A stretch of 64,000 bases of DNA from Casimicrobiaceae bacterium (GCA_035515295.1 DATJBM010000034.1:5346-69345), one strand, 5' to 3'. Positions 38,470 to 51,974 are shown, counted from the stretch's first letter. The notes: generated by a model from the letters alone, not told the origin. Program-made: numbers and translations.

Positions 38470-39225
38470 ATGCCAGGCGCCCTCGCCGGAAAAGTCGCGC
38501 TCGTCACCGGCGCCTCGCGCGGCATCGGACGCGCCATCGCGCTGAAGCTCGCCACCGCGGGCTGCGACGTCGCCGTCAACTACTACAACAGCGCGGACGA
38601 GGCCGAGGCGGTGTGCGCGGAGATCCGGGCGCTGGGGCGGCGCGCGTGCGCCCTGCAGGCGAGCGTCGGCATTCCGGAGAGCGTGGACGAGATGTTCGGC
38701 GAGCTCGGCAGGCGCTTCGATCGCCTCGACATCGTGGTGAGCAACGCCGCGAGCGGCGTGCTCAAGGCGGCCATGGAGATGACGCTCAAGCACTGGCGCT
38801 GGTGCCTCGAGACCAATGCCTTCGCGCTCGACCTTCTCGCTCAGCGCGCCGTGCCGATGATGCCGGCCGGCGGACGCATCATTGCGCTCTCGAGCCTCGG
38901 CGCGTCGCGCGCCATGCCTCACTACGGCTTCATCGGCGCCTCCAAGGCCGCGCTGGAATCGCTGGTGCGCACGCTCGCGCAGGAGCTGGGGCCGAAGCAC
39001 ATCCGCGTCAACACGGTGAGCGCCGGGGTCGTGGACACCGATGCGCTGCGCTACTTTCCCAATCGCGAGGAGCTGCTCGCCGACTTCGCGCGGCGGACGC
39101 CGGCCGGGCCCCGGCTCACGCCGGAGGACGTCGCCGGCGCGGTCTATCTGCTGTGCCTGCCCGAAGCGGCCATGATCAGCGGGCACACGCTGGTCGTCGA
39201 CGGCGGCTTCGCCATCTCCGGCTGA
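38470..39225 (+). CDS. SDR-type enoyl-ACP reductase resembling Bacillus FabL
   Basis: [85 protein letters not shown]. These blocks parallel my recollection of B. subtilis FabL (YgaA). Start trimmed to ATG 38470. Confidence 0.65.
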   Translation: [251 protein letters not shown]

Positions 39226-39240
39226 CTGGGGACGGCGCCG

Positions 39241-39993
39241 ATGGACACGCAACTCACCGGCAAAGTGGCGCTCGTCACCGGGGGCAGCCGCGGGATCGGC
39301 CGCGCGATCGTCGAGCTCTTCGCCGCCGAAGGCGCCGACGTGACGTTCTTCTACCGCGACAACGCCGCCGCGGCGGAGGCGGTCGTCGCGAAGGGCGCGA
39401 CGGCGGGACAGCGCATCGCGGCGGAGAAAGTCGACGTGCGCGATGCCGCGGCGTGTTCCGCCGCGGTGGAGCGCGTCGCCGAGCGCGCGGGGCGCATCGA
39501 CATTCTGGTCAACAACGCCGGGATCATCCGCGACAATCCGCTCGCCGCCTTCTCCGACGACGACGTGCGCAGTGTCCTCGACACCAACGTCGGCGGCGTG
39601 TTCAACGTCACCCGCCCGGTCGTGCCGCACATGATCGTGCAGCGCTCGGGCAAGATCATCAACCTCTCCTCGGTGGCCGGCGAGAAGGGCGGCCGCGGCC
39701 AGACCAACTATGCCGCCAGCAAAGGGGCGATCAACGCGTTCACCCGCGCCCTCGCCGTCGAGCTCGCGCCGCGTCGGATCACGGTGAACTGCGTGGCGCC
39801 GGGCGTCATCGACACCGAGATGTCGCAAGGCGTGCGGGAGGCGGCCGGCGACGAGGTGAAGGCGCGCATCCTCCTCCGGCGCTACGGCCGTCCCGAGGAG
39901 GTCGCCTACGCGGTCTGGTTCCTCGCCTCGCCCTACGCGGATTACGTCACGGGCCAGGTCTTCAGCATCGATGGCGGCTTCAAAATGGAGTGA
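39241..39993 (+). CDS. 3-oxoacyl-ACP reductase (FabG-like SDR)
   Basis: ALVTGGSRGIGRAI, NNAGI, SSVAG...NYAASKGA (Ser-Tyr-Lys), SIDGGFKM; 250 aa. Confidence 0.85.
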   Translation: MDTQLTGKVALVTGGSRGIGRAIVELFAAEGADVTFFYRDNAAAAEAVVAKGATAGQRIAAEKVDVRDAAACSAAVERVAERAGRIDILVNNAGIIRDNPLAAFSDDDVRSVLDTNVGGVFNVTRPVVPHMIVQRSGKIINLSSVAGEKGGRGQTNYAASKGAINAFTRALAVELAPRRITVNCVAPGVIDTEMSQGVREAAGDEVKARILLRRYGRPEEVAYAVWFLASPYADYVTGQVFSIDGGFKME

Positions 39994-39999
39994 ACTCTC

Positions 40000-40428
40000 A
40001 TGGCGGAAAGCGAAATCAGCAAAGAACAAATCGAGGCGGTCTTCCCCAGGGTCGCCGAGACCATGGCCGACGCGCTCGGCTGCGACCTCGAGCAGGTGAA
40101 GCCCGACGTGTCGCTGATCGAGGGGCTGGACGCCGAGTCGATCGACTTTCTCGACATGGTGTTCCGGCTCGAGCGCGCGTTCAAGATCAAGATTCCGCGC
40201 GGCAAGATCATCGAGAACGCGCGCGGCGACATGCCCGAGTCGGAATTCGAGCAGAAGGGCATGCTCACCGAGGCGGGACTCGCCCAGCTCAAGCGCTACC
40301 TCTCCGAAGTCCCGGCCGAGCGCTTCAAGAATCCGATGAAGGTGGCGGACATTCCGCGATTGTTCACCCCCGTGACGTTCTGCAAGCTGGTGATCCGCGC
40401 CCAGCGCGAGGCGGCGCCGGCGAGCTGA
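40000..40428 (+). CDS. Acyl carrier protein, atypically long (142 aa)
   Basis: Carrier-protein core ...LIEGLDAESIDFLDMVFRLERAF (Ser in an E-S-I-D context) followed by a tail of about 60 aa. Sits between the KR and DH genes. Confidence 0.65.
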   Translation: MAESEISKEQIEAVFPRVAETMADALGCDLEQVKPDVSLIEGLDAESIDFLDMVFRLERAFKIKIPRGKIIENARGDMPESEFEQKGMLTEAGLAQLKRYLSEVPAERFKNPMKVADIPRLFTPVTFCKLVIRAQREAAPAS

Positions 40429-40450
40429 TGGCGGCTTGCTTCGGCAATTC

Positions 40451-41281
40451 ATGACCGAGCACTTCGCGGCGTTCTCGTTCGTGGACCGGATCACGAGCTT
40501 CGAGCCGGGAGTGGCGGCGCGCGGAAGCTTCGCGGTGCCAGGAAGTCTCGCGTCATTTCCGGCCTGCCTGGTCGCCGAGGCGGTGGGCCAGCTCGCGGCA
40601 TGGACGGCGATGGACGCGATCGGCTTCCGGGGACGGCCCGTGGCCGCGCTCGCCACCGAGACGGTGTTCCATCGCGACGTCGCGCCCGGCTCGCGCCTCG
40701 ATCTCTCGGTCGAGGTCGAGAGCTGCGACGACGAGGCGATCGCCTACGGCGGCCGCGCCGAGGTCGACGGCGTTGCAGTGATCGAGCTCAAGCACTGTCT
40801 GGGCCCGATGCTGCCGGTCGCCGATTTCGACGCGCCGGAAGCGCTGCGCGATCGCCTTCGACTGCTGCGCAGCGAGGGCGCGCCGGCAGGCCGGTTTCAC
40901 GGCGTCGCGCTACCCGAGCTCGCGCCGCTGGAAGGCGAGCCGGGCCGTTCCGCCCGTGCGCTGCTGAGCGTGCCGGAGGCGGCGCCGTTCTTCGCCGATC
41001 ACTTCCCGCGTCGCCCGGTGTTTCCGGCCACGCTGCTGCTCGACAGCCAGATCCGGCTTGCCCTGGACCTCGCCCGCGCCGCGGTCGGCAGCGCCGGACT
41101 CGTGGCGCGGCGCATGACGCACGTGAAGATGCGCTCGTTCATCGCGCCCGGTTCGGCCGTGACACTGGGCGCGGAGCTGGCCGCGCCGAACGACTTCAGC
41201 GACGCGGTGCGGCTCTCGGCGGCGATCGACGGGCGCACGGTCGCCACGGCGCGGCTCAACCTCGGCGCGAAGGACGGCTGA
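40451..41281 (+). CDS. Double hot-dog FabA/FabZ-like dehydratase
   Basis: C-terminal half has PFFADHFPRRPVFPATLLLDSQ (FabZ/FabA His motif). N-terminal half is a degenerate hot-dog (FVDRITSFEPG...). ATG 40451 preferred over the TTG at 40436. Confidence 0.65.
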   Translation: MTEHFAAFSFVDRITSFEPGVAARGSFAVPGSLASFPACLVAEAVGQLAAWTAMDAIGFRGRPVAALATETVFHRDVAPGSRLDLSVEVESCDDEAIAYGGRAEVDGVAVIELKHCLGPMLPVADFDAPEALRDRLRLLRSEGAPAGRFHGVALPELAPLEGEPGRSARALLSVPEAAPFFADHFPRRPVFPATLLLDSQIRLALDLARAAVGSAGLVARRMTHVKMRSFIAPGSAVTLGAELAAPNDFSDAVRLSAAIDGRTVATARLNLGAKDG

Positions 41282-42574
41282 ATGCCGCGGCGGCGCGTTG
41301 CGATCACGGGGCTCGGCCTGGTCACGCCGGTCGGTAACGACGTGGCGACCACGTGGGCCGCCTTGCGCGCGGGTCGCAGCGGCGGTGCGCCGATCACGCT
41401 CTTCGACGCGTCGGGCTTTCCCGTGCGCATCGCCGCCGAAGTAAAGGGATTCGACGCCGGCGCCGCGATCGGCGACCGCAAGCTTCTCAAGTTCGCCAAC
41501 CGCTCGCACGGCTTCGCGCTCGCCGCTGCGGAGCAGGCGTTCGACGACGCCGGCATCCGGCCGGCTTCAGCCACCGCGACGCGCTGGGGCTGCGCGGTGG
41601 GCACCGGCATGATGGGTGTGGATTTCGCAGAGCTCGTCGCCGTTCACCACCACAGTGCCGCGAACGGCGAGCTCGACGCGCTGCGGCTCCTCGACGACGC
41701 CTCCGCCAACAATCCCGTGGTGTTCTGCCGCAGCCAGTCGACAACAGGGCTGTCGCTGCTCACGAAACGCTACAACCTGCGCGGCTACGCCACGTCGGTT
41801 CACACGGCGTGCGCCTCCGGCGGTCAGGCGATCGGCACGGCGCTCAAGCTGATTCGCCGTGGCGCGGTCGATTGCGCGCTCGCGGGCGGCTTCGACTCGA
41901 TGGTGAACCCCGTAGGCATCGCCGGCTTCTGCCTGCTCTCGGCGCTCTCGGCCGACAACGATACGCCCGAGCGCGCGAGCCGTCCGTTCGACGCGACGCG
42001 CAACGGCTTCCTGCTCGGCGAGGGCGCGGGCTTCCTGGTTCTCGAGGAATGGGAATCCGCGCGGCGGCGCGGCGCGCGCATCTACGCCGAGCTCGCCGGC
42101 GACGGCAACTCGCTGTCGAGCTATCGCATCACCGATTCGCCGCCCGACGGCGACGGGCCGATCCAGTCGATGCGCCAGGCGCTCGGCGACGCCGGCGCGG
42201 CGCTCGAGGACGTCGACTACATCAACGCCCACGGCACCTCCACGCTCATGAACGACCGAAGCGAGAGCGTGGCGATTCACGCGGTGTTCGGGCCACGGAC
42301 CAGGCAGGTCGCGGTCAGCTCGACCAAGAGCTCGATGGGGCACCTGATCGCCGCCGCCGGCGCGGTCGAGGTCGCCGTGTGCGCGCTCGCGATCCGCGAC
42401 GGCGAGCTTCCGGTCAACGCCAACGTGCGCGACCCCGATCCCGACTGCGATCTCGCGCTCGTGCGCGACGCGTCGCTCAAGCGTCGAGTGCGGGTGACGC
42501 TCTCCAACTCTTTCGGCTTCGGCGGCTCGAACAGCTGCGTCGCGCTGCGCGCGCCGGATCAGGTCGCAGGCTGA
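41282..42574 (+). CDS. Beta-ketoacyl-ACP synthase (FabF-like, intact Cys-His-His)
   Basis: VAITGLGLVTPVG, VHTACASGGQAIG (Cys), NAHGTSTLMND (His), KSSMGHLIAAAG (His), NSFGFGGSNSCV. The ATG directly abuts the DH stop (TGAATG). Confidence 0.88.
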   Translation: MPRRRVAITGLGLVTPVGNDVATTWAALRAGRSGGAPITLFDASGFPVRIAAEVKGFDAGAAIGDRKLLKFANRSHGFALAAAEQAFDDAGIRPASATATRWGCAVGTGMMGVDFAELVAVHHHSAANGELDALRLLDDASANNPVVFCRSQSTTGLSLLTKRYNLRGYATSVHTACASGGQAIGTALKLIRRGAVDCALAGGFDSMVNPVGIAGFCLLSALSADNDTPERASRPFDATRNGFLLGEGAGFLVLEEWESARRRGARIYAELAGDGNSLSSYRITDSPPDGDGPIQSMRQALGDAGAALEDVDYINAHGTSTLMNDRSESVAIHAVFGPRTRQVAVSSTKSSMGHLIAAAGAVEVAVCALAIRDGELPVNANVRDPDPDCDLALVRDASLKRRVRVTLSNSFGFGGSNSCVALRAPDQVAG

Positions 42575-42587
42575 GCGAACGGCAGGC

Positions 42588-43865
42588 ATGGCGAGGCCGC
42601 GCGTCTTCATCACCGGCACCGGCGCGGTGTGCGCAGCGGGCCGCGATCCGGCCGCCATTCTGGAAGCCGTGCGCGCCGGCCGCTCGGCCATCGCCCCGAT
42701 TCGCCAGTGGGACGCCTCGAGCTGGCCGCGGAGGATGGCCGGCGAAGTCGGCGATTTCAACGCCCGCGAGCTGGTCGAAGACCGCAAGATGCACAAGCTC
42801 ATCCGGCGCACCGACTTCTTCGGACTGTACGCTTCGGGCCGCGCGGTGCAGGCCTCCGGTATCGCGACGCATCGCGACACGCTCGAAAGCGCCGCGGCGG
42901 CCCACTACAGCGACCGCACGGGCGTCTACGTCGGCTCCGGCGGCGGCAACTACGACAGCCAGTACGACTACTTTCCGCTGCTGACCGAGGCCGACGAAGC
43001 TCTGCCCGCGTTCGGCCGCGAGCTCGCCAACACCGTGAACCCGATGTGGCTGCTGCGCACGCTGCCGAACAACGTGCTCGGCCACATCGGCATCCGCCAC
43101 GGCTTCAAGGGCTCGAACGCGTGCATCACGAATCACAGCGTCGGCGGGACGCTGGCGGTGATCGAGGCGACCGAAGCGCTGCGCAACGGCGAGGCGGATC
43201 GGGCGCTCGCGGTAGGACACGACGCGCCGATCGAGCCGCAGATGGTGCTCTACTACCACGATGTCGGCCTGCTCGCGCGGGAGGCGATCCGTCCGTTCGA
43301 TGCGCGCCGCGACGGCAGCCTGTTCGGCGAGGGCGCGGCGGCATTGGCGCTGGAGACCGAAGCCTCGGCGCGGGAGCGCGGCGCGACCGCCATCGGCGAA
43401 ATCCTCGGCGGAGGCTCGGCGACCGATGCGCTCGGACTGCTCGCCATCCGCGACGACGGCGAAGCGCTGGCGCGCGCGATCGAGCTCGCGCTCGAGGATG
43501 CCGGGATCAAGCCTGGTGACGTGGGCGTGATCGCCGCGCACGGCAACGGCACGCCGCAATCCGACGCCTCCGAGGCCGCGGCCATCCGTCGGGTGTTCGG
43601 GAACGCCGCGCCGCCGGCGACCGCGTTCAAGTGGGCATTCGGACACCTCATTGCCGCCGCGGGGATCCTCGACGCCGTGCTTGTGCTCCATGCACTGCGC
43701 GACCGCGTCGTCCCGGGCGTTGCGACCTACGGCCAAGTCGATCCGGACTGCGCCGGCGCGCGCGTGTCGGCCGAGCCACAGGCAGCTCGCAGCGCTGTGG
43801 CGCTCGTCCTCTGCCGCGGCTTTGCCGGGACCAACGCGGCGGTCATCCTCCACGCTATTCGGTAG
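42588..43865 (+). CDS. KS-like partner lacking the active-site Cys (chain-length-factor type)
   Basis: Thiolase fold (VFITGTGAVCAAG..., AAHGNGTPQSD, KWAFGHLIAAAG), but the position aligned with TACASGG reads TNHSVGG, i.e. His in place of Cys. Confidence 0.7.
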   Translation: MARPRVFITGTGAVCAAGRDPAAILEAVRAGRSAIAPIRQWDASSWPRRMAGEVGDFNARELVEDRKMHKLIRRTDFFGLYASGRAVQASGIATHRDTLESAAAAHYSDRTGVYVGSGGGNYDSQYDYFPLLTEADEALPAFGRELANTVNPMWLLRTLPNNVLGHIGIRHGFKGSNACITNHSVGGTLAVIEATEALRNGEADRALAVGHDAPIEPQMVLYYHDVGLLAREAIRPFDARRDGSLFGEGAAALALETEASARERGATAIGEILGGGSATDALGLLAIRDDGEALARAIELALEDAGIKPGDVGVIAAHGNGTPQSDASEAAAIRRVFGNAAPPATAFKWAFGHLIAAAGILDAVLVLHALRDRVVPGVATYGQVDPDCAGARVSAEPQAARSAVALVLCRGFAGTNAAVILHAIR

Positions 43866-43872
43866 ACGCGCC

Positions 43873-44289
43873 ATGCAGCCGACCGCGCCGGCTTCGGCAA
43901 ACGCGATGCGCTGCGGGATCGACACGGTCGAGATCGCGCGCCTCGAGCGGCTGCTCGCGGAGAATCCACGCGGCGACCTGCTGCGATTGTTCTCGCCGCA
44001 GGAAATCGCCGACAGCGGCGACGGACCCGGACGCGCGGCGAGCCTCGCCGCGCGCTTTGCCGCCAAGGAGGCGTGCGTGAAGCTCTTCCCCCGCGAAGCC
44101 GCGCTGGGCGAGATCGAGCCGGGAGACTTTTCCGTCGCCCGCGATGCCTATGGCGCGCCGCAGGCCGCAGTGTCCGAGCGCGCCGAGGCCGTTCTCGCCC
44201 GCAACGGCATCCGTTCGATCGCGCTCTCGCTCGCGCACGACCGCACGAGCGCCTGCGCGGTCGCCCTGGCGGTTGCATCGACACGCTGA
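43873..44289 (+). CDS. AcpS-type 4'-phosphopantetheinyl transferase
   Basis: RCGIDTVEIARLERLL...RFAAKEACVKL...SLAHDRTSACAVAL, about 138 aa. Start at ATG 43873 (or 43906). Confidence 0.75.
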   Translation: MQPTAPASANAMRCGIDTVEIARLERLLAENPRGDLLRLFSPQEIADSGDGPGRAASLAARFAAKEACVKLFPREAALGEIEPGDFSVARDAYGAPQAAVSERAEAVLARNGIRSIALSLAHDRTSACAVALAVASTR

Positions 44290-45644
44290 TGGCGACTCGT
44301 CCTGCCGGAGGCACGACGAAGGATGGCGTCGGGGCGACGCTGGGGATACGCGGGCCAGCCCTTACCTACACGGGCGACCCGTTCCGCCACGGGCTGGACC
44401 GCACCCTGCGCTACGAGCCCGACGCGATCATCGTGGTCGAGGACGGCAGGATCGTTCGCTTCGGTCCCGCGGCCGACGTCGCACCGTCGCTACCCGCGGG
44501 CACGACCGTGGACCGCTATGGCGAGGACACGCTCGTCATGCCGGGATTCATCGACTGTCACGTTCACTTCCCGCAGCTCCAGATCATCGGCGCCGGCGGC
44601 GAGCAGCTCCTCGACTGGCTCGCCAAATACACCTTCGCGGCCGAGGAGCGCTTTGCCGACCCCGAACACGCCCGGGAGGTCGCGCGCTTCTTCTTGAGCG
44701 AGAGCCTGCGCAACGGCATCACCACGTCGGCCGTGTACTGCACGGTACACGCGACGTCGGTCGACGCGCTGTTCGAGGAGGCCCTCGGGCTGGGCTTGCG
44801 CACGATCGCCGGCAAGGTCCTGATGGACCGCAACGCGCCGCAAGCTCTGCTCGATACCGCGCAAGCCGGCTACGACGAGTCCAGGGCGCTGATCGAACGC
44901 TGGCACGGGCGCGGGCGGCTCAGGTACGCGATCACGCCGCGCTTCGCCGCGACCAGCAGCCCGGCGCAGCTCGAAGCCGCGGGGGCGCTTCGCGCCGAGC
45001 ATCCCGACGCCTTCCTGCAGTCGCACGTCGCGGAGAACCGACGCGAGATCGAATGGATCCGCGAGCTCTATCCGGAGCGCAGGCACTACCTCGACGTCTA
45101 CGATCACTACGGGCTTCTGGGTCCGCGCGCGATCTACGGTCACGGCATATGGCTGTCCGAGGAGGAGCTCAGGCGCTGTCACGACACGGGTACCGCGATC
45201 GCCCACTGCCCGACGTCGAACTTCTTCCTCGGCAGCGGATGCCTCGATCTGCGCCGGATGCTGTCCGGCGAGCGGCCGCTGCGCGTCGGACTGGCGACCG
45301 ACCTCGGCGCCGGCACGTCGTTCTCCATGCTGCGAACCATGAGCGAAGCCTACAAGGCCGCGCAGCTGCACGGCTACGCGCTTCGCCCCGGGCACGCCTT
45401 CTATCTCGCGACCCGCGGCAGCGCGCACGCGCTCTATGTCGACGACACCATCGGCAGCATCGCGCCCGGCATGGAGGCCGATCTCGTCGTCCTCGATCTG
45501 AGGTCCACGCCGCTCATCGAGTACCGGATGCGGCACGCGGCCGATCTCGAGGAGGCGCTCGGCGTGCAGATGGCGCTCGGCGACGACCGGGCGGTCCGGG
45601 CGACGTACGCCGGCGGCTGCAAACTCTACGACCGAGCCGCCTAG
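44289..45644 (+). CDS. guaD: Guanine deaminase
   Basis: MPGFIDCHVHFPQLQIIGAGGEQLLDWLAKYTF, AGKVLMDRNAP, YAITPRFAATSS, SHVAEN, AHCPTSNFFLGSG, GLATDLGAGTSFSML. Collinear with my recollection of E. coli GuaD. The ATG overlaps the acpS-like stop (TGATG). Confidence 0.88.
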   Translation: MATRPAGGTTKDGVGATLGIRGPALTYTGDPFRHGLDRTLRYEPDAIIVVEDGRIVRFGPAADVAPSLPAGTTVDRYGEDTLVMPGFIDCHVHFPQLQIIGAGGEQLLDWLAKYTFAAEERFADPEHAREVARFFLSESLRNGITTSAVYCTVHATSVDALFEEALGLGLRTIAGKVLMDRNAPQALLDTAQAGYDESRALIERWHGRGRLRYAITPRFAATSSPAQLEAAGALRAEHPDAFLQSHVAENRREIEWIRELYPERRHYLDVYDHYGLLGPRAIYGHGIWLSEEELRRCHDTGTAIAHCPTSNFFLGSGCLDLRRMLSGERPLRVGLATDLGAGTSFSMLRTMSEAYKAAQLHGYALRPGHAFYLATRGSAHALYVDDTIGSIAPGMEADLVVLDLRSTPLIEYRMRHAADLEEALGVQMALGDDRAVRATYAGGCKLYDRAA

Positions 45645-46660
45645 CGCGGAGGCTCCGCCGGCGCGCGGTCGCGTGCCTTCGGCGCGAACACCGGGCCGCC
45701 TTCATAGGTGAAGTACATCTTGCGCTGGCTATGGGAGACGAGCACGCGATGCGAGCGCAGAAAGTCGGCGCCAAGCAACATGTCGGGCGTATCCTGGATG
45801 CGTACGGACAGGTGGCTGGCGATCGAGGTATAGCGGGCGTCCTTGTAAAGATCGGCGAAGTGCAGGAACGTATCGCTGATGGTCTCGTCGCCGATGGCAA
45901 AGGCCTGCAACGGTGCCATCCAGGAATCGACCGGCTGCGAGCCCAGTCCCCGGCTCACTCCTGCAAACGTGACGCCCGGTGAATCGGGCGTGAGGCCAAG
46001 CCGCTCGGCCACCCGCTCGTCGAGCGTCGACACGCCGGCACCGGAGTCGAACAGGGCGTGCATTGGACGCCCGTTGATCCGGACGGGCACGACCGTGCGC
46101 TGACCGGCATCGTAGGCGGGCTCGAGATCGACTTGCCCCGTGCCCTGGGACGCCCAGTATCCGAGCGCCACGCCTTCGCATCCCTCCGGCCGAAACAACC
46201 GCACTGCGCCATGCGGCAGGTCGAATTCGACATCGGCTTGCTCGAAGAAGTCTTCCCCGAGAACAAGGTCGACGTCGTTGCCGAAACTGTGCTCGCCGGC
46301 GACCAGTATCCGCCAATTCTGACGGGTCAGTTGCCCTATCCGGACGTCCTCGACGGTGGTTTCCTCGACGTAGGTCTCGCCTCCGATGCCGAAGATGCGG
46401 CGGCCTCTCGCGACCTGGCCCGCAAGACCCAGCCGAGCCGTCGCCGAGCGAAAGAGGAACGTGTCGGAGCCCGTGTCGAGCATGACGCCGACCATCCGGC
46501 CATTGATCGCACCGTCGACCATGAGATGCCCGCGTTCAAGCCTGACGGGCCACTCGACGAGGCGCGTCATCGTGCACTTGGCAAGCGCGGGGCTCGCAAT
46601 GCTGGCGAGCATCAGAGTAAGGGCAACCAGCGCGCTGCGGGCGGCTGGCACGCGTAACAT
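45641..46660 (-). CDS. Secreted aspartic protease with two retropepsin-like lobes
   Basis: Signal peptide MLRVPAARSALVALTLMLASIASPALA. Two D-T/S-G-A/S motifs (VMLDTGSDT and ALFDSGAGVS), each in a half of about 150 aa, followed by LLGADFL / VLGEDFF flap-like motifs. Confidence 0.7.
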   Translation of the reverse strand: MLRVPAARSALVALTLMLASIASPALAKCTMTRLVEWPVRLERGHLMVDGAINGRMVGVMLDTGSDTFLFRSATARLGLAGQVARGRRIFGIGGETYVEETTVEDVRIGQLTRQNWRILVAGEHSFGNDVDLVLGEDFFEQADVEFDLPHGAVRLFRPEGCEGVALGYWASQGTGQVDLEPAYDAGQRTVVPVRINGRPMHALFDSGAGVSTLDERVAERLGLTPDSPGVTFAGVSRGLGSQPVDSWMAPLQAFAIGDETISDTFLHFADLYKDARYTSIASHLSVRIQDTPDMLLGADFLRSHRVLVSHSQRKMYFTYEGGPVFAPKARDRAPAEPPR

Positions 46661-46785: not shown

Positions 46786-47166
46786 GTGGACTTTTCCAGC
46801 CGCAGCCTGGCCGACGTCGTCGTCGCCGTTCCTGTCGGACCGATCGATCATGCCAACGCGCAGGGGCTGCAGGAGGCGCTCGCCCCGCTGCTCAACTCGC
46901 CCCCGCCGGGGACGGCGGGGCTGGTCCTGGATCTGTCCCGAGTCGACTACATCAGCAGCATGGGCCTGCGCGTGCTCATGGTCGCGGCGAAGCAGCTTCG
47001 CGCCCGCAGCATGCGCATCGCGGTGGCGGCGCTGACGCCCGTCGTCAAGGAGATCTTCGACATCGCGCGGTTCAATCACGTGACGGAAGTCTTCCCGACG
47101 GTGCGCTCGGCCCTGGAACGGATCTCGCCTGCCGCGCTCGCGGCCTTTGAGACCGACGCGCAATGA
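46786..47166 (+). CDS. STAS-domain anti-sigma-factor antagonist (SpoIIAA/RsbV-like)
   Basis: LVLDLSRVDYISSMGLRVLMVAAKQL (phosphorylatable Ser context D-x-I-S-S-x-G-L). GTG 46786 sits behind GGGAGGAG. Confidence 0.78.
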   Translation: MDFSSRSLADVVVAVPVGPIDHANAQGLQEALAPLLNSPPPGTAGLVLDLSRVDYISSMGLRVLMVAAKQLRARSMRIAVAALTPVVKEIFDIARFNHVTEVFPTVRSALERISPAALAAFETDAQ

Positions 47167-48125
47167 AATGCGTACGCTTCTGGGGAACGCGCGGTTCGCT
47201 CCCGGTCGCCCTGACCGCCGCAGGCGTGCGGCGCAAGATCATCGCCGCGCTGCGCGGCGCGGCCGGCCGCAACTTCGCCTCGGACGAAGCGCTGGAGGCC
47301 TACGTCGACAGCCTGGGCATGCCGGTGTCGGGGACTTACGGCGGGCACAGTCCGTGCGTCGAGATCGAGACGGGACACGGTGAATACGTGCTCTGCGACC
47401 TGGGCTCCGGCGTGCGTCCCTTCGGGCAGAAGGCGATCGCGCGGCACGGACCCGGCTCGCCGCAGACTTACCACATATTCCTCTCGCATCTGCACTGGGA
47501 CCACATCATGGGCTTCCCGCTGTTCACGCCGGCCTACATACCGGGCAACCGCATCCGCATCTACGGCGGGCACGCGGTCCTCGAGGAGGCGCTGCGCCGG
47601 CAGCACGCGGCCCCGTCGTTCCCGGTCGATTTCTCCGCGCTTCCCGCGACGATCGAGTTCGTCCGCCTCGATCCCGGGCGCGCGCACGACCTCGCCGGGT
47701 TGCGGGTCGAGCTGATGCTGCAGCGGCACAGCGGCGACTCCTACGGCTACCGCTTCTCGTCGGACGGCAAGGCGGTGATCTATTCGACCGATTCCGAGCA
47801 TGCGCTCGACGATCCGGACGACACGAATCGTTTCGTGGCGTTCTTTCGCGGCGCCGACCTGGTGATCTTCGACGCGATGTATTCGCTCGCCGACGCAATA
47901 TCGGTCAAGCAGGACTGGGGGCATTCGAGCAACATCGTCGGCGTGGAGCTTTGCCAGATGGCCGGCGCGCGCCGGCTGTGCCTGTTCCACCACGAGCCCG
48001 TGCACGGCGACGAGGCGATCGAGCGCGTGCTCGCCGAGACGCGGCGCTTCGAGGAGATCACCCGCAGCGATCGGCCGGCTCTCGCCGTGACGGCCGCGTA
48101 CGACGGGATGGAAATTCCCTTGTGA
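47163..48125 (+). CDS. MBL-fold metallo-hydrolase
   Basis: VRFWGTRGSLPV N-terminus, HIFLSHLHWDHIMGFP (HxHxDH), a later DSEH and LFHHEP. The ATG overlaps the STAS stop (ATGA). Confidence 0.8.
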   Translation: MKCVRFWGTRGSLPVALTAAGVRRKIIAALRGAAGRNFASDEALEAYVDSLGMPVSGTYGGHSPCVEIETGHGEYVLCDLGSGVRPFGQKAIARHGPGSPQTYHIFLSHLHWDHIMGFPLFTPAYIPGNRIRIYGGHAVLEEALRRQHAAPSFPVDFSALPATIEFVRLDPGRAHDLAGLRVELMLQRHSGDSYGYRFSSDGKAVIYSTDSEHALDDPDDTNRFVAFFRGADLVIFDAMYSLADAISVKQDWGHSSNIVGVELCQMAGARRLCLFHHEPVHGDEAIERVLAETRRFEEITRSDRPALAVTAAYDGMEIPL

Positions 48126-50278
48126 CGAGAACCGCCGCCGAGAACCCCGCCCGTCCCTCGTACGGCCGGATCTCCGCAGCGGGCATCGCGCTCCTGGCGC
48201 TCCTCGCCGCGCTCATCGGCGCGGAGCCGGCGTGGCATCGGCGCCTTCAGTCGGTGTGGTTCGACGCCTATCAGATGTTCATGCCGCGCGAGATCGTTTC
48301 CACGCCGGTCACGGTGGTCGAGATCGACGAGAAGAGCGTGGCCAAGCTCGGACAATGGCCATGGCCGCGCACGACGCTTGCCGAACTCGTGCGCGCGATC
48401 GAGCGCCTGGCCCCGGCCGCCATCGGCATCGACATTCTGATGCCCGAGCCCGACCGGCTTTCGCCGGAGCGATTGCTCGCAAGGGCGCGGCAGCGCGACC
48501 CCCTGCTCGACGAGCGGCTGCGGTGGCTGCCCTCGAGCGACATCGAGCTCGCGCGTGCCGTCGCCGCGGGACCCGTGGTGGTCGGCTTTGCCGGCATCGC
48601 CGAATCCAGCGCCTCGGTCCCGCCTGTCCCCCCGTTCGTCGTCGTCGATCGGGGGTCGCCGCCCCGCGCGCCGATGGTCGCGCCCAACGTGCCGACCTTT
48701 GCGGGCGCGTTGGGCAACGTCGCCGAGATCGATTACGCTGCCGCTGGGCACGGCGCGATCTCGGCCGCGCCCTCCGACGACGTGATTCGCAAGCTTCCCC
48801 TCGCGGTGCGCATCGACGAACGTCTCGCGCCATCACTGCCGATCGAGATGCTGCGTGTCGCGCTGCACGCTCCCGAGGTTCGCCTCTTCACCCATGGCGG
48901 ATCGGTCCGGGCGATTGGCGTGGGCGACTTCGTCGCGCCGACGGAAAGCGACGGGGGACTCCGCATCTACTACTCGAGACGCGATCCGCGGCGCTACGTC
49001 TCGGCGATCGACGTCCTGGACGGACGAATCGAGCCCGAGCGATTGCAGCGCAAGCTCGTTCTCATAGGCACGAGCGGTTTCGCGATGGTGGACTATCAGG
49101 GCACGTCGCTCGGAGATCGCATGCCGGGCAGCGAAATCCTCGCTCAGGCCCTCGAGAACCTCTACGACCAGACGTGGCTCGCGCGTCCCACGTGGGCAGC
49201 GCCGGCCGAGCTGGCGCTCTTGCTGCTGCTTGGCCTGGCGCTCATCTGGGCGACACCGCGCTCGAGGCCTCCGGCCGCGGCGCTGCTCGCCGTGCTCGCG
49301 GTTGTCCTGCCGATCGCCCTGGGCGCAGGCGCGTTCGTCTGGCGAAGGCTCGTGTTCGATGCCGCCACGCCGGCGCTCGGATTGGTCGTGCTGTTCAGCG
49401 TGCTGCTGCTCCTCACGCTCGCCGAAGCCGGCCGACAACGAAGGCAGCTCGAACGCGTGATTCGGACACAGCGCGAAGCGGCCGCGTACATCGCCGGCGA
49501 GGTGCGGGCCGCCAAGCGCATTCAGACGGGTCTGCTGCCGCGCGGCGACGCGCTCGCCGCCGAGCGGCGGGTCGAGATAGCCGCGGCGATGACCCCGGCC
49601 CGCGACGTCGGCGGCGACCTGTACGACTTCTTCACGCTCGATGACGGCCGCCTGTTCTTCACGATCGGCGACGTGGCCGGCAAAGGCCTCTCGGCGAGCA
49701 TGTTCATGGCGATCAGTAAGGCGCTCTACAAGAGCACCGTCCTGCGGGACCCGGACGCCGACGTGGGTGAGCTTATGCGGCGCGCGAACGCGGACATCTC
49801 GCGCGACAACCCTGAGATGTTCTTCGTCACCGCGTTCGCCGGAGTGCTCGACCTCGACTCGGGCCGGCTCGAGTACTGCAACGCCGGCCACGACAGCCCC
49901 TACGTGCTGCGCCCGGAAGGGGCAGATCTGGCGCGGCTTGGCGAAGCGGCGGGCCCGCCGCTGTGCGCCGTCGACGGTTTTAACTACCGCGCGGCTGAGC
50001 GGCGGATAGATCCCGGCCAGCTGGTGTGCCTCGTCACCGATGGCGTCGGCGACGCGCGCAATGCCCAAGGCGAGCGCTATGGAGGCGCACGCCTGCAGGC
50101 GCTGCTCGCGGGTCTGCCCGCGAAGGAGCGGACGGCGCGCGCGGTGGTCGGCGCGGTGTCCGCCGACGTGCAACGTTTTGCCGACGGCGCCGAGGCGGCC
50201 GACGACATCACGCTGCTGGTTGTGCGCTGGATCGGTCCCCAGGCGCGAGACCGACCCGAGGCTCAACCGCGGCCGTAG
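48122..50278 (+). CDS. CHASE2-sensor membrane protein with C-terminal PP2C/SpoIIE phosphatase (RsbU-like)
   Basis: GTG 48122 overlaps the MBL stop (GTGA). N-terminal TM, CHASE2 signature VTVVEIDEKSVAKLGQWPWPRTTLAELV...IGIDILMPEPD, three TM segments, then ARDVGGDLYDFF...FTIGDVAGKGLSASMFMA...LVTDGV. Confidence 0.82.
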   Translation: MTRTAAENPARPSYGRISAAGIALLALLAALIGAEPAWHRRLQSVWFDAYQMFMPREIVSTPVTVVEIDEKSVAKLGQWPWPRTTLAELVRAIERLAPAAIGIDILMPEPDRLSPERLLARARQRDPLLDERLRWLPSSDIELARAVAAGPVVVGFAGIAESSASVPPVPPFVVVDRGSPPRAPMVAPNVPTFAGALGNVAEIDYAAAGHGAISAAPSDDVIRKLPLAVRIDERLAPSLPIEMLRVALHAPEVRLFTHGGSVRAIGVGDFVAPTESDGGLRIYYSRRDPRRYVSAIDVLDGRIEPERLQRKLVLIGTSGFAMVDYQGTSLGDRMPGSEILAQALENLYDQTWLARPTWAAPAELALLLLLGLALIWATPRSRPPAAALLAVLAVVLPIALGAGAFVWRRLVFDAATPALGLVVLFSVLLLLTLAEAGRQRRQLERVIRTQREAAAYIAGEVRAAKRIQTGLLPRGDALAAERRVEIAAAMTPARDVGGDLYDFFTLDDGRLFFTIGDVAGKGLSASMFMAISKALYKSTVLRDPDADVGELMRRANADISRDNPEMFFVTAFAGVLDLDSGRLEYCNAGHDSPYVLRPEGADLARLGEAAGPPLCAVDGFNYRAAERRIDPGQLVCLVTDGVGDARNAQGERYGGARLQALLAGLPAKERTARAVVGAVSADVQRFADGAEAADDITLLVVRWIGPQARDRPEAQPRP

Positions 50279-50339
50279 GCAACGCCCCGCTTGGCGCCGA
50301 GCGACGCGAGCGAAGTTTTCGTCGGAGCGGCGGCTGCGC

Positions 50340-50936
50340 TCAGCGGACGAGAATCTCCACCCGCCTGTTGCGCGGCTCGGCCACGCCGTCCGGTGTGGGG
50401 ATCGCTGGCTCGCGCTTGCCGCGCGAGATGGCGCGAACGTCGTTCGCCGGGATCCCCAGCTTGATCAGCGCCGCCCGCACGGTCTCGGCCCGCTGCAACG
50501 CCAGCGCGTCATTGAAGGCGTCGTTGCCGACCGCATCGGTGTGACCGACGACCAGCACGTCGGGCACGGGACGCTTCGCGATCTCCGTCAGGATGCGATC
50601 GACGATCTGTCTGGATTCGTCGGTGAACTCATCCCTGCCTTCGACGAAGTACAGCGTGAAGCTCGCAGCGCGGCTGGGCTGGGCAGCCAGCGCCGGTCCG
50701 AACCGCGCCTGCACTTCCTCGGGGCTCGAGCGATAGGCGCGCGGACCGATCGCCGTGGCATGCGCCGCGGCGTACGGCTCGCTGAGCACGACTTCCTTGT
50801 CGCCCTGCTTCACCGCGACCGCGGCCGGCCGTCCATCCTGCTCCGGCAGAAGAACCACCGTCCCCCGGCTCGCGCAGCCGGCGACGAGCGCGCACGCGAC
50901 CAGTATCGCGCAACAACGGGCGATCGGTTCACTCAT
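50340..50936 (-). CDS. OmpA-family lipoprotein
   Basis: Lipobox ILVACALVAGC. C-terminal OmpA-like domain VVGHTDAVGNDAFNDALALQRAETVRAAL...NRRVEILV. Confidence 0.85.
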   Translation of the reverse strand: MSEPIARCCAILVACALVAGCASRGTVVLLPEQDGRPAAVAVKQGDKEVVLSEPYAAAHATAIGPRAYRSSPEEVQARFGPALAAQPSRAASFTLYFVEGRDEFTDESRQIVDRILTEIAKRPVPDVLVVGHTDAVGNDAFNDALALQRAETVRAALIKLGIPANDVRAISRGKREPAIPTPDGVAEPRNRRVEILVR

Positions 50937-51381
50937 CGACGCTCACCGCGAATTCCGTGCCGCGCACGCCGAGGATCGCGTTCGGCGTGCGCACCGTCAT
51001 CGCGTCGGGAGCCTGCTTGGCGATACGGCCCGATATCACGGCCAGCGTGCCGCGATTGAGCGAGGCGTCGAAGCGCCCGGCGCGCGTCGTCGGATCGAAC
51101 GCATAGCGATCGAGAGCCAGCACGCTGTTGGGACCTGCCGACAACAGGGTGTCGTCGTCCATGGTGATCCCCACCGAGCCGTCGGCGCCGGTCTTCACGA
51201 CGTCTGCCGCCTGCAGTCGCGTGCCGATCGCCGCCGGAAGCGCTTGGCCCGAGCGCTCGATCGTCACTTGTCCGCGCGAGACCTTGACCTGACCGATGTC
51301 GGCCGCCCGAGCGCAGGCCCCGAAGCACAAGGCGGTCAACAGCAGAAATGGGCACACAGCGGAACTCGATCGCTTCGGCAT
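50929..51381 (-). CDS. Exported FecR-domain protein
   Basis: Start trimmed to ATG 51381 behind GGGAGGAGAAG. Signal peptide, then VSRGQVTIERSG...GTRLQAADVVKTGADGSVGITMDDDTLLSAGPNSVLAL...VRTPNAILGVRGTEF (FecR-like beta-rich domain). 8-nt overlap with the OmpA-like gene. Confidence 0.75.
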   Translation of the reverse strand: MPKRSSSAVCPFLLLTALCFGACARAADIGQVKVSRGQVTIERSGQALPAAIGTRLQAADVVKTGADGSVGITMDDDTLLSAGPNSVLALDRYAFDPTTRAGRFDASLNRGTLAVISGRIAKQAPDAMTVRTPNAILGVRGTEFAVSVDE

Positions 51382-51503
51382 CTTCTCCTCCCGCGGGATC
51401 CGAGAGAAGCCGGGCCAAGTAAAATGCGCCCGTGCGCGCTCGCGGCGCTCCATGATGCCGCGTGGCGCACGCTGCGTCCAGACGATCCTCCTGCCCGGAA
51501 ACG

Positions 51504-51974
51504 ATGTCGAGCCTGCAGCAAGCCGTCTTTCCCGCGCGCTTTGCCGCCTTGCGCGACACGGCGGCGTTCGTGCAACGCTTCTGCGAGGGCAACGGGATCG
51601 GCCGCGAAGATGGGCTGCGGCTGACGCTGCTCGTCGAGGAGCTTTTCACCAATACGGTGCAGCACGGCCACGGCAGCGAGAGCAACGCGCCGATCAGGGT
51701 GGCGCTCGAACTTTGCGACGAAGGCGTGCGCATGCTCTACGAAGACACGGCGCCTCGCTACGATCCCACGCAGACCTGGAGCGAGGGCGAAGCGGCGCTG
51801 GACGCCCCGCCGGAAGCCAGGCCCGTGGGCGGGCTGGGGCTCGCTCTGCTCCGCGGGCTGGCTGCGGAGGCGCGTTACGCCTACGAGCAGAGCATGAATC
51901 GGCTGTGGCTCACCCTGCCGTGCCGACAGACTGTTCGCGACCATCCCCCGCAGCCCGGGTCGCCCCGCGAGTAG
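51504..51974 (+). CDS. Anti-sigma-type serine protein kinase (RsbW/SpoIIAB-like HATPase)
   Basis: LTLLVEELFTNTVQHG (N-box), VGGLGLALLRGLA (G-box), about 156 aa. Start trimmed to ATG 51504. Confidence 0.72.
   Translation: MSSLQQAVFPARFAALRDTAAFVQRFCEGNGIGREDGLRLTLLVEELFTNTVQHGHGSESNAPIRVALELCDEGVRMLYEDTAPRYDPTQTWSEGEAALDAPPEARPVGGLGLALLRGLAAEARYAYEQSMNRLWLTLPCRQTVRDHPPQPGSPRE

Follow-up and report, generated by a model that had tools for sequence, protein, structure and literature searches.

The subject of this work is a group of six genes located in a window of 64 kb (this term denotes the whole stretch of DNA that was analysed), with approximately 69% G+C, originating from a metagenome-assembled genome (MAG) of Casimicrobiaceae (Betaproteobacteria). 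These genes encode: (i) a STAS-domain antagonist, (ii) a hydrolase of the metallo-β-lactamase (MBL) fold, (iii) a membrane phosphatase combining a CHASE2 sensor domain with a PP2C domain, (iv) an OmpA-like lipoprotein, (v) an exported FecR-domain protein and (vi) a serine kinase of the RsbW/SpoIIAB type (Table 1). An earlier note, made from the DNA sequence alone, had read them as a partner-switching module with no sigma factor, i.e. an envelope-driven circuit of phosphatase, kinase and antagonist, for which the MBL enzyme was the most obvious candidate output. The domains that it had named were confirmed by Pfam in all six genes. The MBL protein shows 100% identity to a database protein bearing the name Casimicrobiaceae.

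Table 1. Coordinates of the six cassette genes and of the divergent intergenic region within the 64-kb window.
Feature	Position	Strand	Basis and product length
STAS antagonist	46786..47166	+	Pfam STAS, E 1.3e-18; 126 aa from GTG 46786
MBL-fold metallo-hydrolase	47163..48125	+	Pfam Lactamase_B_2, E 1e-18; 320 aa
Membrane sensor phosphatase	48122..50278	+	Pfam CHASE2, E 4e-47, and SpoIIE/PP2C, E 7e-43; 718 aa
OmpA-like lipoprotein	50340..50936	-	Pfam OmpA, E 1.5e-16; 198 aa
Exported FecR-domain protein	50929..51381	-	Pfam FecR, E 1e-10; 150 aa
Divergent intergenic region FecR/kinase	51382..51503	.	Position only
RsbW/SpoIIAB-type serine kinase	51504..51974	+	Pfam HATPase_c_2, E 3.4e-18; 156 aa

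The first three genes are chained to one another: as read in the sequence, the STAS stop and MBL start codons share ATGA, and the MBL stop and phosphatase start codons share GTGA. As derived from the coordinates of the open reading frames (ORFs), the FecR gene overlaps the start of the OmpA gene by 8 nt, so that all the overlaps described in the earlier note are present. The STAS and FecR starts given in Table 1 follow the public gene call (the STAS ORF opens at TTG 46765 and the FecR ORF spans 50929-51453), and the kinase ORF opens at GTG 51462. The divergent intergenic region presumably holds both promoters, the one facing the FecR gene and the one facing the kinase gene; no match to the sigma-70 consensus and no Rfam family was found in it, and the promoter, terminator and RNA-family scans yielded nothing useful.

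Conservation of the six-gene cassette

Related loci were found by a profile scan with the MBL protein, with one genome taken per species, which revealed at least 594 genomes carrying a relative. The best 80 loci (62-81% identity) were kept and, together with three closer contigs, constitute a set of 83 loci, in which the six-frame ORFs were compared with the window proteins by phmmer and jackhmmer searches. Among them, 64 loci from other genomes were long enough to judge the content of the cassette. The STAS, MBL, CHASE2, PP2C, OmpA, FecR and kinase sequences were present, in the same order and orientation as in the window, in 48 of these 64 loci, while the remaining 16 lacked the kinase only, despite at least 4 kb of sequence beyond the FecR gene. 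The PP2C phosphatase was found in the cassette clade wherever the contig reached far enough. According to the MAG labels, the carriers are mostly Betaproteobacteria, with further ones assigned to Gammaproteobacteria, Rokubacteria/Methylomirabilota, Deltaproteobacteria and Acidobacteria. There is also a cultured gammaproteobacterial carrier, Nevskia soli DSM 19509 (L066), which is open to genetics.

The surroundings of the cassette are variable. Clustering of all flanking ORFs revealed no family occurring in more than 10 of 81 loci, i.e. no seventh conserved gene, and the protease and LysR neighbours seen in the window are common only to its closest relatives. As the six genes stay together while their flanks vary, they constitute a self-contained cassette occurring in changing genomic contexts, and we are nearly certain that this cassette is real. 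Its six proteins diverge in parallel, with the median identity to the window proteins being the highest for the MBL enzyme (67%), followed by the FecR protein (66%), and the lowest for the kinase (46%) and CHASE2 (45%).

The genes occupy both strands and three transcription units, as might be expected if two or three unrelated operons had become adjacent by coincidence. This explanation is extremely improbable and, for practical purposes, excluded by the conservation analysis, which showed that the cassette is kept across genomes: order and orientation are maintained in three quarters of diverse loci with unrelated flanks, and the proteins diverge together. The earlier note had proposed neighbourhood conservation as a check of its reading, and the objection that relatives might lack this gene grouping does not apply, as it is kept across many lineages. 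The treatment of the six genes as one grouping holds for their order, and it needs correction with regard to the kinase, whose linkage is the loosest of all the parts. A phage-type integrase and fragments of transposases were identified directly upstream of one cassette with fused STAS and MBL genes (L168 4213-6410), a context in which the cassette may be carried by mobile islands.

Sensor, switch and MBL enzyme

The phosphatase is composed of one N-terminal transmembrane (TM) segment (residues 13-38), a periplasmic CHASE2 domain (27-374), a TM block (356-439) comprising three TM segments, and a cytoplasmic PP2C part, in which all metal-binding motifs (GGD497, GDVAGKG516, TDG639 and DDIT694) are present. 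The OmpA-like protein carries a lipobox (LVAGC), and the FecR protein consists of a signal peptide and a FecR domain only, with no anti-sigma or TM part. The CHASE2-TM-PP2C architecture, the lipoprotein and the exported FecR protein are therefore as the earlier note had described them. Signalling of the FecI/FecR/FecA type was considered and rejected, given the composition of this 150-aa FecR protein and the lack of an extracytoplasmic function (ECF) sigma factor in the window.

When plasmids were searched by tblastn using the CHASE2 part as the query, two informative matches were obtained. Plasmid pBN1 of Paraburkholderia aromaticivorans (L164 3707-6305) encodes, in one operon, a FecR protein (150 aa, 51% identity to that of the window), an OmpA-like protein (204 aa, 40% along its entire length) and a membrane protein with CHASE2 only (39.5%), with no PP2C, STAS, MBL or kinase gene in the operon. 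The CHASE2 protein of pBN1 (492 aa) has no recognisable cytoplasmic output domain. The other match, pAMI5 of Paracoccus, combines a CHASE2 adenylate cyclase gene with genes for TPR and FecR proteins. In two variants of the cassette (L035 and L107), which keep their STAS, MBL and kinase genes, the phosphatase has dCache-HAMP in place of CHASE2, and the available part of the contigs contains neither a FecR nor an OmpA gene.

Similar associations have been published. In Burkholderia and its relatives, a LysM-FecR protein adjoins a CHASE2 histidine kinase (PMC5192318); in Campylobacterota, the gene cluster of a CHASE2 adenylate cyclase also encodes a cAMP phosphodiesterase, a FecR-domain protein and a TPR protein (PMC9239204); and in S. 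meliloti the FecR-domain protein SMc02177 belongs to the regulon of CHASE2 cyclases (PMC5498481). The cassette resembles these systems in having a periplasmic FecR-domain protein encoded beside the CHASE2 receptor, the CHASE2 domain being placed between TM segments and the exported FecR protein being accompanied by a peptidoglycan-binding module. This module is LysM in the Burkholderia 'BiofilmReg' RR/LysM-FecR/CHASE2 system (PMC5192318) and OmpA, on a separate lipoprotein, in the cassette. Unlike the CHASE2 histidine kinases and cyclases (including CyaD1 of S. meliloti), the receptor of the cassette has a PP2C output, which would feed a STAS switch.

Because the triad occurs alone, and the dCache-HAMP versions occur without FecR and OmpA, the latter two are accessories of CHASE2 and do not interrupt the switch; we consider it very likely that they go with this domain. 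The view of the earlier note that the module is split around a FecR/OmpA pair is thus not tenable, as the pair belongs with the CHASE2 sensor, in agreement with the pBN1 operon and the published clusters (PMC5192318, PMC9239204). FecR, OmpA and CHASE2 form a separable sensory triad. The CHASE2 sensor domain is common among bacteria and, to our knowledge, no signal has been assigned to it; the conserved unit of OmpA lipoprotein, FecR and CHASE2 provides a defined system for finding that signal.

The STAS protein is a single-domain protein recognised by the NCBIfam model ant_ant_sig (TIGR00377; 63.5 bits, cut-off 53.45). The second Ser of its DYISSMGL motif aligns with Ser58 of SpoIIAA and is invariant (within DYISS[MVA]GLR) across all informative cassette orthologues, those of the 16 kinase-less loci included, which agrees with the intact phospho-Ser context recognised in the earlier note. 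The two-domain STAS-MBL fusions described below also retain Ser or Thr at this site. The kinase gene lies, as that note had it, divergent from the FecR and OmpA genes, and the predicted RsbW/SpoIIAB-type enzyme keeps the N box (EEL..N..HG) and the G2 box (G.LG).

Cassettes with the Ser kept and no adjacent kinase gene are those of L004-L006, L010-L012, L016, L022, L023, L029, L042, L050, L053, L054, L076 and L168. Their kinase may be encoded elsewhere, or another kinase may act on the STAS protein. One of them (L004 12303-12855) contains, at the site occupied by the kinase gene in the window, an 86-bp unit repeated in tandem 6.4 times (88% matches); the unit was present in no other retrieved locus.

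The metal ligands of the MBL enzyme, namely H109, H111, D113 and H114 (the HxHxDH motif), H189, D210 and H276/277, are invariant in the alignment, and the enzyme looks active as far as its residues allow this to be judged. An AlphaFold2 model of the window protein was of moderate quality (pLDDT 67.7, pTM 0.70) and was used for the fold class only. Its best Foldseek matches were YhfI of B. subtilis (6kns), BA1088 of B. anthracis (1zkp), PhnP (3g1p) and RNase Z/ELAC1, with further matches to PDE1 of yeast (4ojv) and the phage protein Apyc1 (7u2s), the last of these being weaker than YhfI or RNase Z. These structural matches have E-values from 3e-12 to 6e-7 at only 14-19% sequence identity. All of the fold neighbours are phosphodiesterases, acting on cyclic nucleotides, on a cyclic phosphate or at the 3' ends of RNA. 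The cassette enzyme shares with RNase Z/ElaC, YhfI, BA1088, PhnP, Apyc1 and PDE1 the MBL fold, the HxHxDH motif and the later His/Asp ligands; it differs from them in the low identity given above and in features of its own family, i.e. an N-terminal FWGTRGS motif and a two-helix insert (residues 19-50). Taken together, the motifs and the model suggest that the MBL enzyme is probably a phosphodiesterase of the RNase Z/YhfI/PhnP/Apyc1 branch.

Membership in named families was rejected, as every NCBIfam match of the MBL enzyme was far below the respective cut-off. These include ribonuclease Z (TIGR02651; 61.7 bits, cut-off 292.95) and the Apyc1-like cyclic nucleotide-degrading MBL phosphodiesterases (NF041851; 47.5 bits, cut-off 400); on the Apyc1-like side, the matches to PF23023 were precomputed ones only. 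PDB sequence searches with single-clade and broad profiles revealed no solved structure within the family, which has thousands of members and no characterised representative.

When 1.84 billion cluster representatives were searched exhaustively with HMMER, 6734 relatives of the MBL enzyme were obtained, 817 of them at E <1e-30. Of the best 150 family representatives (clustered at 50% identity), 54 exceed 345 aa in length, and a STAS domain was identified in at least 44 of these longer proteins. Pfam analysis of a sample revealed four fusion architectures: STAS-MBL, MBL-STAS, MBL-STAS-Pkinase and MBL-STAS-Pkinase-AAA_16-TPR. A second search, seeded with a STAS-MBL fusion protein, returned at least 120 clusters (90% identity) of full-length STAS-MBL fusions of 440-480 aa, e.g. 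from Stellaceae. The giant proteins of the last architecture (1200-1650 aa; P0145, P0153, P0165, P0169 and approximately 25 more representatives) combine MBL and STAS with a Hanks kinase, AAA_16 and TPR in a STAND-like manner, and their kinase part gave a generic match to PADLOC kinase models.

Fusions and rearrangements were also observed within cassettes. The fused STAS-MBL gene is followed by (i) CHASE2, SpoIIE, then OmpA, a FecR-like gene and the kinase (L167), (ii) a CHASE2-PP2C gene, then OmpA and FecR, with no kinase (L168), (iii) a CHASE2-PP2C gene and then the kinase (L097) or (iv) an RsbW-type kinase only, in a minimal version with no phosphatase within 7 kb (L166 7001-8747). Unfused variants comprise a STAS gene divergent from the MBL gene, which is followed by a PP2C-kinase fusion (L092), an MBL gene followed by STAS (L094), and the two dCache-HAMP loci, with the orders STAS-MBL-KIN-[dCache-HAMP-PP2C] (L035) and [dCache-HAMP-PP2C]-MBL (L107). 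Since STAS and MBL are fused in both orders and with two unrelated kinase types, and remain adjacent under rearrangement, they appear to work together physically; from these gene architectures it is likely that they are a direct pair. The same evidence makes STAS a better candidate than the kinase for the component that touches the MBL enzyme, and the recurrent fusions support the proposal of the earlier note that this enzyme is the output.

Proposed circuit and its relation to known systems

The search for sigma factors was performed with jackhmmer seeded with RpoE, SigB and SigF; the seed sequences were approximate, yet they recovered ECF-like ORFs elsewhere. With these seeds, no sigma70-family ORF was detected in the 64-kb window, and the called genes within 10 kb of the cassette include neither a sigma factor nor a GGDEF gene, in accordance with the earlier observation that no sigma factor or diguanylate cyclase lies near the locus. 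An ECF/sigma-like ORF was found within 8 kb in only 4 of the 83 loci, at differing positions. One of these (L049 6427-7251) is the only locus in which such an ORF lies directly upstream of the STAS gene, and it could represent a lineage whose cassette is connected to a sigma factor.

Matches to the RsbU/V/W families were obtained for the three core proteins, and kinases of the SpoIIAB/RsbW type usually double as anti-sigma factors. It can therefore be asked whether the cassette performs classical partner switching, with the kinase being the anti-sigma factor of a distant sigma factor, the STAS protein its antagonist and the MBL enzyme an accessory or a merely co-transcribed product. The arrangement in L049 would fit such a scheme, and the search of this genome covered the 64-kb window, beyond which a sigma gene may lie. 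We nevertheless regard it as quite improbable, because 79 of the 83 loci are free of sigma-like ORFs within 8 kb, the dispensable part of the cassette is the kinase and not the MBL enzyme, the latter is the most conserved cassette protein, and STAS-MBL fusions occur in many lineages, within cassettes that may or may not contain the kinase. Compared with RsbU/V/W and SpoIIE/SpoIIAA/SpoIIAB, the cassette agrees in its three protein families and in the position of the phospho-Ser, but it lacks a nearby sigma gene and has an additional enzyme gene, translationally coupled or fused to STAS. Thus, the STAS and PP2C components of partner switching are present, and a sequestered sigma factor was not found locally (in the window or near the cassette in 79 loci).

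Our preferred explanation is that of an envelope-sensing cassette of three layers, in which a STAS switch controls an MBL phosphodiesterase, and on the evidence of comparative genomics we hold this overall picture to be moderately probable. The direction of signalling that we infer is as follows. The peptidoglycan-bound, outer-membrane-anchored OmpA-like lipoprotein, the FecR protein and the periplasmic CHASE2 domain would act as the sensor and report an envelope or periplasmic condition, and the state of this sensor would set the activity of the cytoplasmic PP2C domain. PP2C would strip the phosphate placed by the RsbW-type kinase on the conserved Ser of STAS. STAS in one of its two states, the unphosphorylated form being the most likely, would bind the co-translated MBL enzyme and change its activity, either by activation or by inhibition, and the output would therefore be phosphodiester hydrolysis, with no release of a sigma factor. 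The substrate would be a cyclic nucleotide, a cyclic phosphate or RNA. A narrower version, in which STAS loses its phosphate once the envelope triad senses a change in the peptidoglycan or the outer membrane and then switches on or off an MBL enzyme specific for a cyclic nucleotide or a 2',3'-cyclic phosphate, is put forward tentatively and must be considered doubtful. As a whole, the conserved grouping and the lack of a nearby sigma factor support the circuit of phosphatase, kinase and antagonist driven from the envelope that had been suggested in the earlier note.

Several observations weigh against this picture. (i) A cognate sigma factor is possibly encoded elsewhere in the genome, beyond the 64 kb searched. 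(ii) Numerous remote homologues in the MBL family occur on their own among unrelated genes, and most distant relatives in the metagenome scan have unrelated surroundings. (iii) The phospho-site is often Ile, Val or Met in the giant fusions with Pkinase, and the STAS-MBL coupling is hence not always dependent on phosphorylation; these giant proteins may use STAS differently. (iv) The G1 box of the kinase reads EDTAPRYDP, with the canonical Gly replaced; it is ED[TSA]AP.[YF]DP in the cassette clade and DxGxxFDP in some cassette-variant or distant homologues. (v) The kinase is missing from a quarter of the judgeable cassettes (16/64) though the Ser is kept, so phosphorylation may rely on a kinase encoded elsewhere or vary by lineage. 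(vi) The AlphaFold2 model of a natural STAS-MBL fusion has a pTM of 0.62 and a disordered linker, and therefore gives no confident STAS-MBL interface.

Some of these points would also be expected if the STAS-MBL pair were real and followed another logic, with STAS being a ligand- or nucleotide-binding regulatory domain, or the MBL enzyme degrading a feedback or input molecule, and with Ser phosphorylation being secondary. The giant fusions that frequently lack Ser or Thr at the phospho-site, the kinase-less cassettes and the distant MBL relatives without any STAS neighbour are consistent with such a logic, as is the cAMP phosphodiesterase in a published CHASE2 cyclase cluster (PMC9239204). It is, however, unlikely in view of the invariant Ser in the cassette clade, the presence of PP2C wherever the contig extends far enough, the intact catalytic motifs of this phosphatase and the co-occurrence of the kinase in 48 of the 64 loci.

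Control of an enzyme by the proposed STAS switch would have precedents in non-sigma partner switching, i.e. SiaC-SiaD, HsbA-HsbD and the HenR/STAS/glycosyltransferase module of Anabaena (PMC8457831, PMC13555669); in SiaABCD of Pseudomonas, SiaC activates the diguanylate cyclase SiaD (PMC8457831). As in SiaABCD, HsbR/HsbA and HenR, a PP2C phosphatase and a Ser/Thr kinase would set the state of a small switch protein, which is here proposed to bind an enzyme. The cassette differs from all three in that its proposed target is an MBL-fold phosphodiesterase, its membrane phosphatase carries a CHASE2 sensor domain and has two envelope partners of its own, and natural STAS-enzyme fusions exist. Membership in SiaABCD itself was rejected, with the SiaA model scoring 32.5 bits against a cut-off of 700 and no GGDEF gene nearby. 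Another likeness is found in RsbU/RsbV/RsbW of Chlamydia, where a transmembrane PP2C phosphatase with a periplasmic sensor drives a STAS/kinase pair; that sensor is not CHASE2, and the system has neither FecR/OmpA partners nor an MBL gene.

Our literature searches found no published description of the cassette, of the STAS-MBL pairing or of a CHASE2-PP2C phosphatase, and the words hydrolase, phosphodiesterase, enzyme and fused are all absent from a 2021 review on STAS-only proteins. The novelty of the cassette most likely lies in the combination of non-sigma partner switching having an enzyme output with a three-protein envelope sensor. For most sigma-less partner-switching systems we know of no assigned output, and comparative genomics here names, for one of them, a concrete target that can be assayed in vitro. 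If the narrower version of the circuit given above is true, a second-messenger-degrading MBL enzyme gated by STAS would be the first of its kind, and CHASE2, an orphan domain, would for the first time acquire defined accessory proteins, together with a biochemical read-out.

Flanking genes and other observations

PADLOC analysis of the cassette proteins matched nothing beyond generic OmpA/MotB, and a defence-system identity was rejected. The cassette of the window is flanked by a tandem-domain aspartyl protease and a LysR regulator, the two neighbours reported in the earlier note, which were found again in the gene calls and by Pfam. The protease gene (45641-46660, - strand), located directly upstream, encodes a secreted protein whose single chain contains a pair of retropepsin-like aspartyl protease domains (two Asp_protease_2 matches); it is placed outside the cassette, since it is common only to the closest relatives (L001-L003). 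Further called genes within 10 kb on either side encode an amidohydrolase, GST, LigB and succinate dehydrogenase-type proteins and belong in part to a polyketide/fatty-acid-like lipid cluster. This biosynthetic cluster (approximately 38470-45644, + strand), judged from the gene calls, resembles those of the aryl-polyene type and comprises genes for two SDR reductases, an ACP, a FabA/ApeI-like dehydratase, two ketosynthases, a phosphopantetheinyl transferase and an amidohydrolase.

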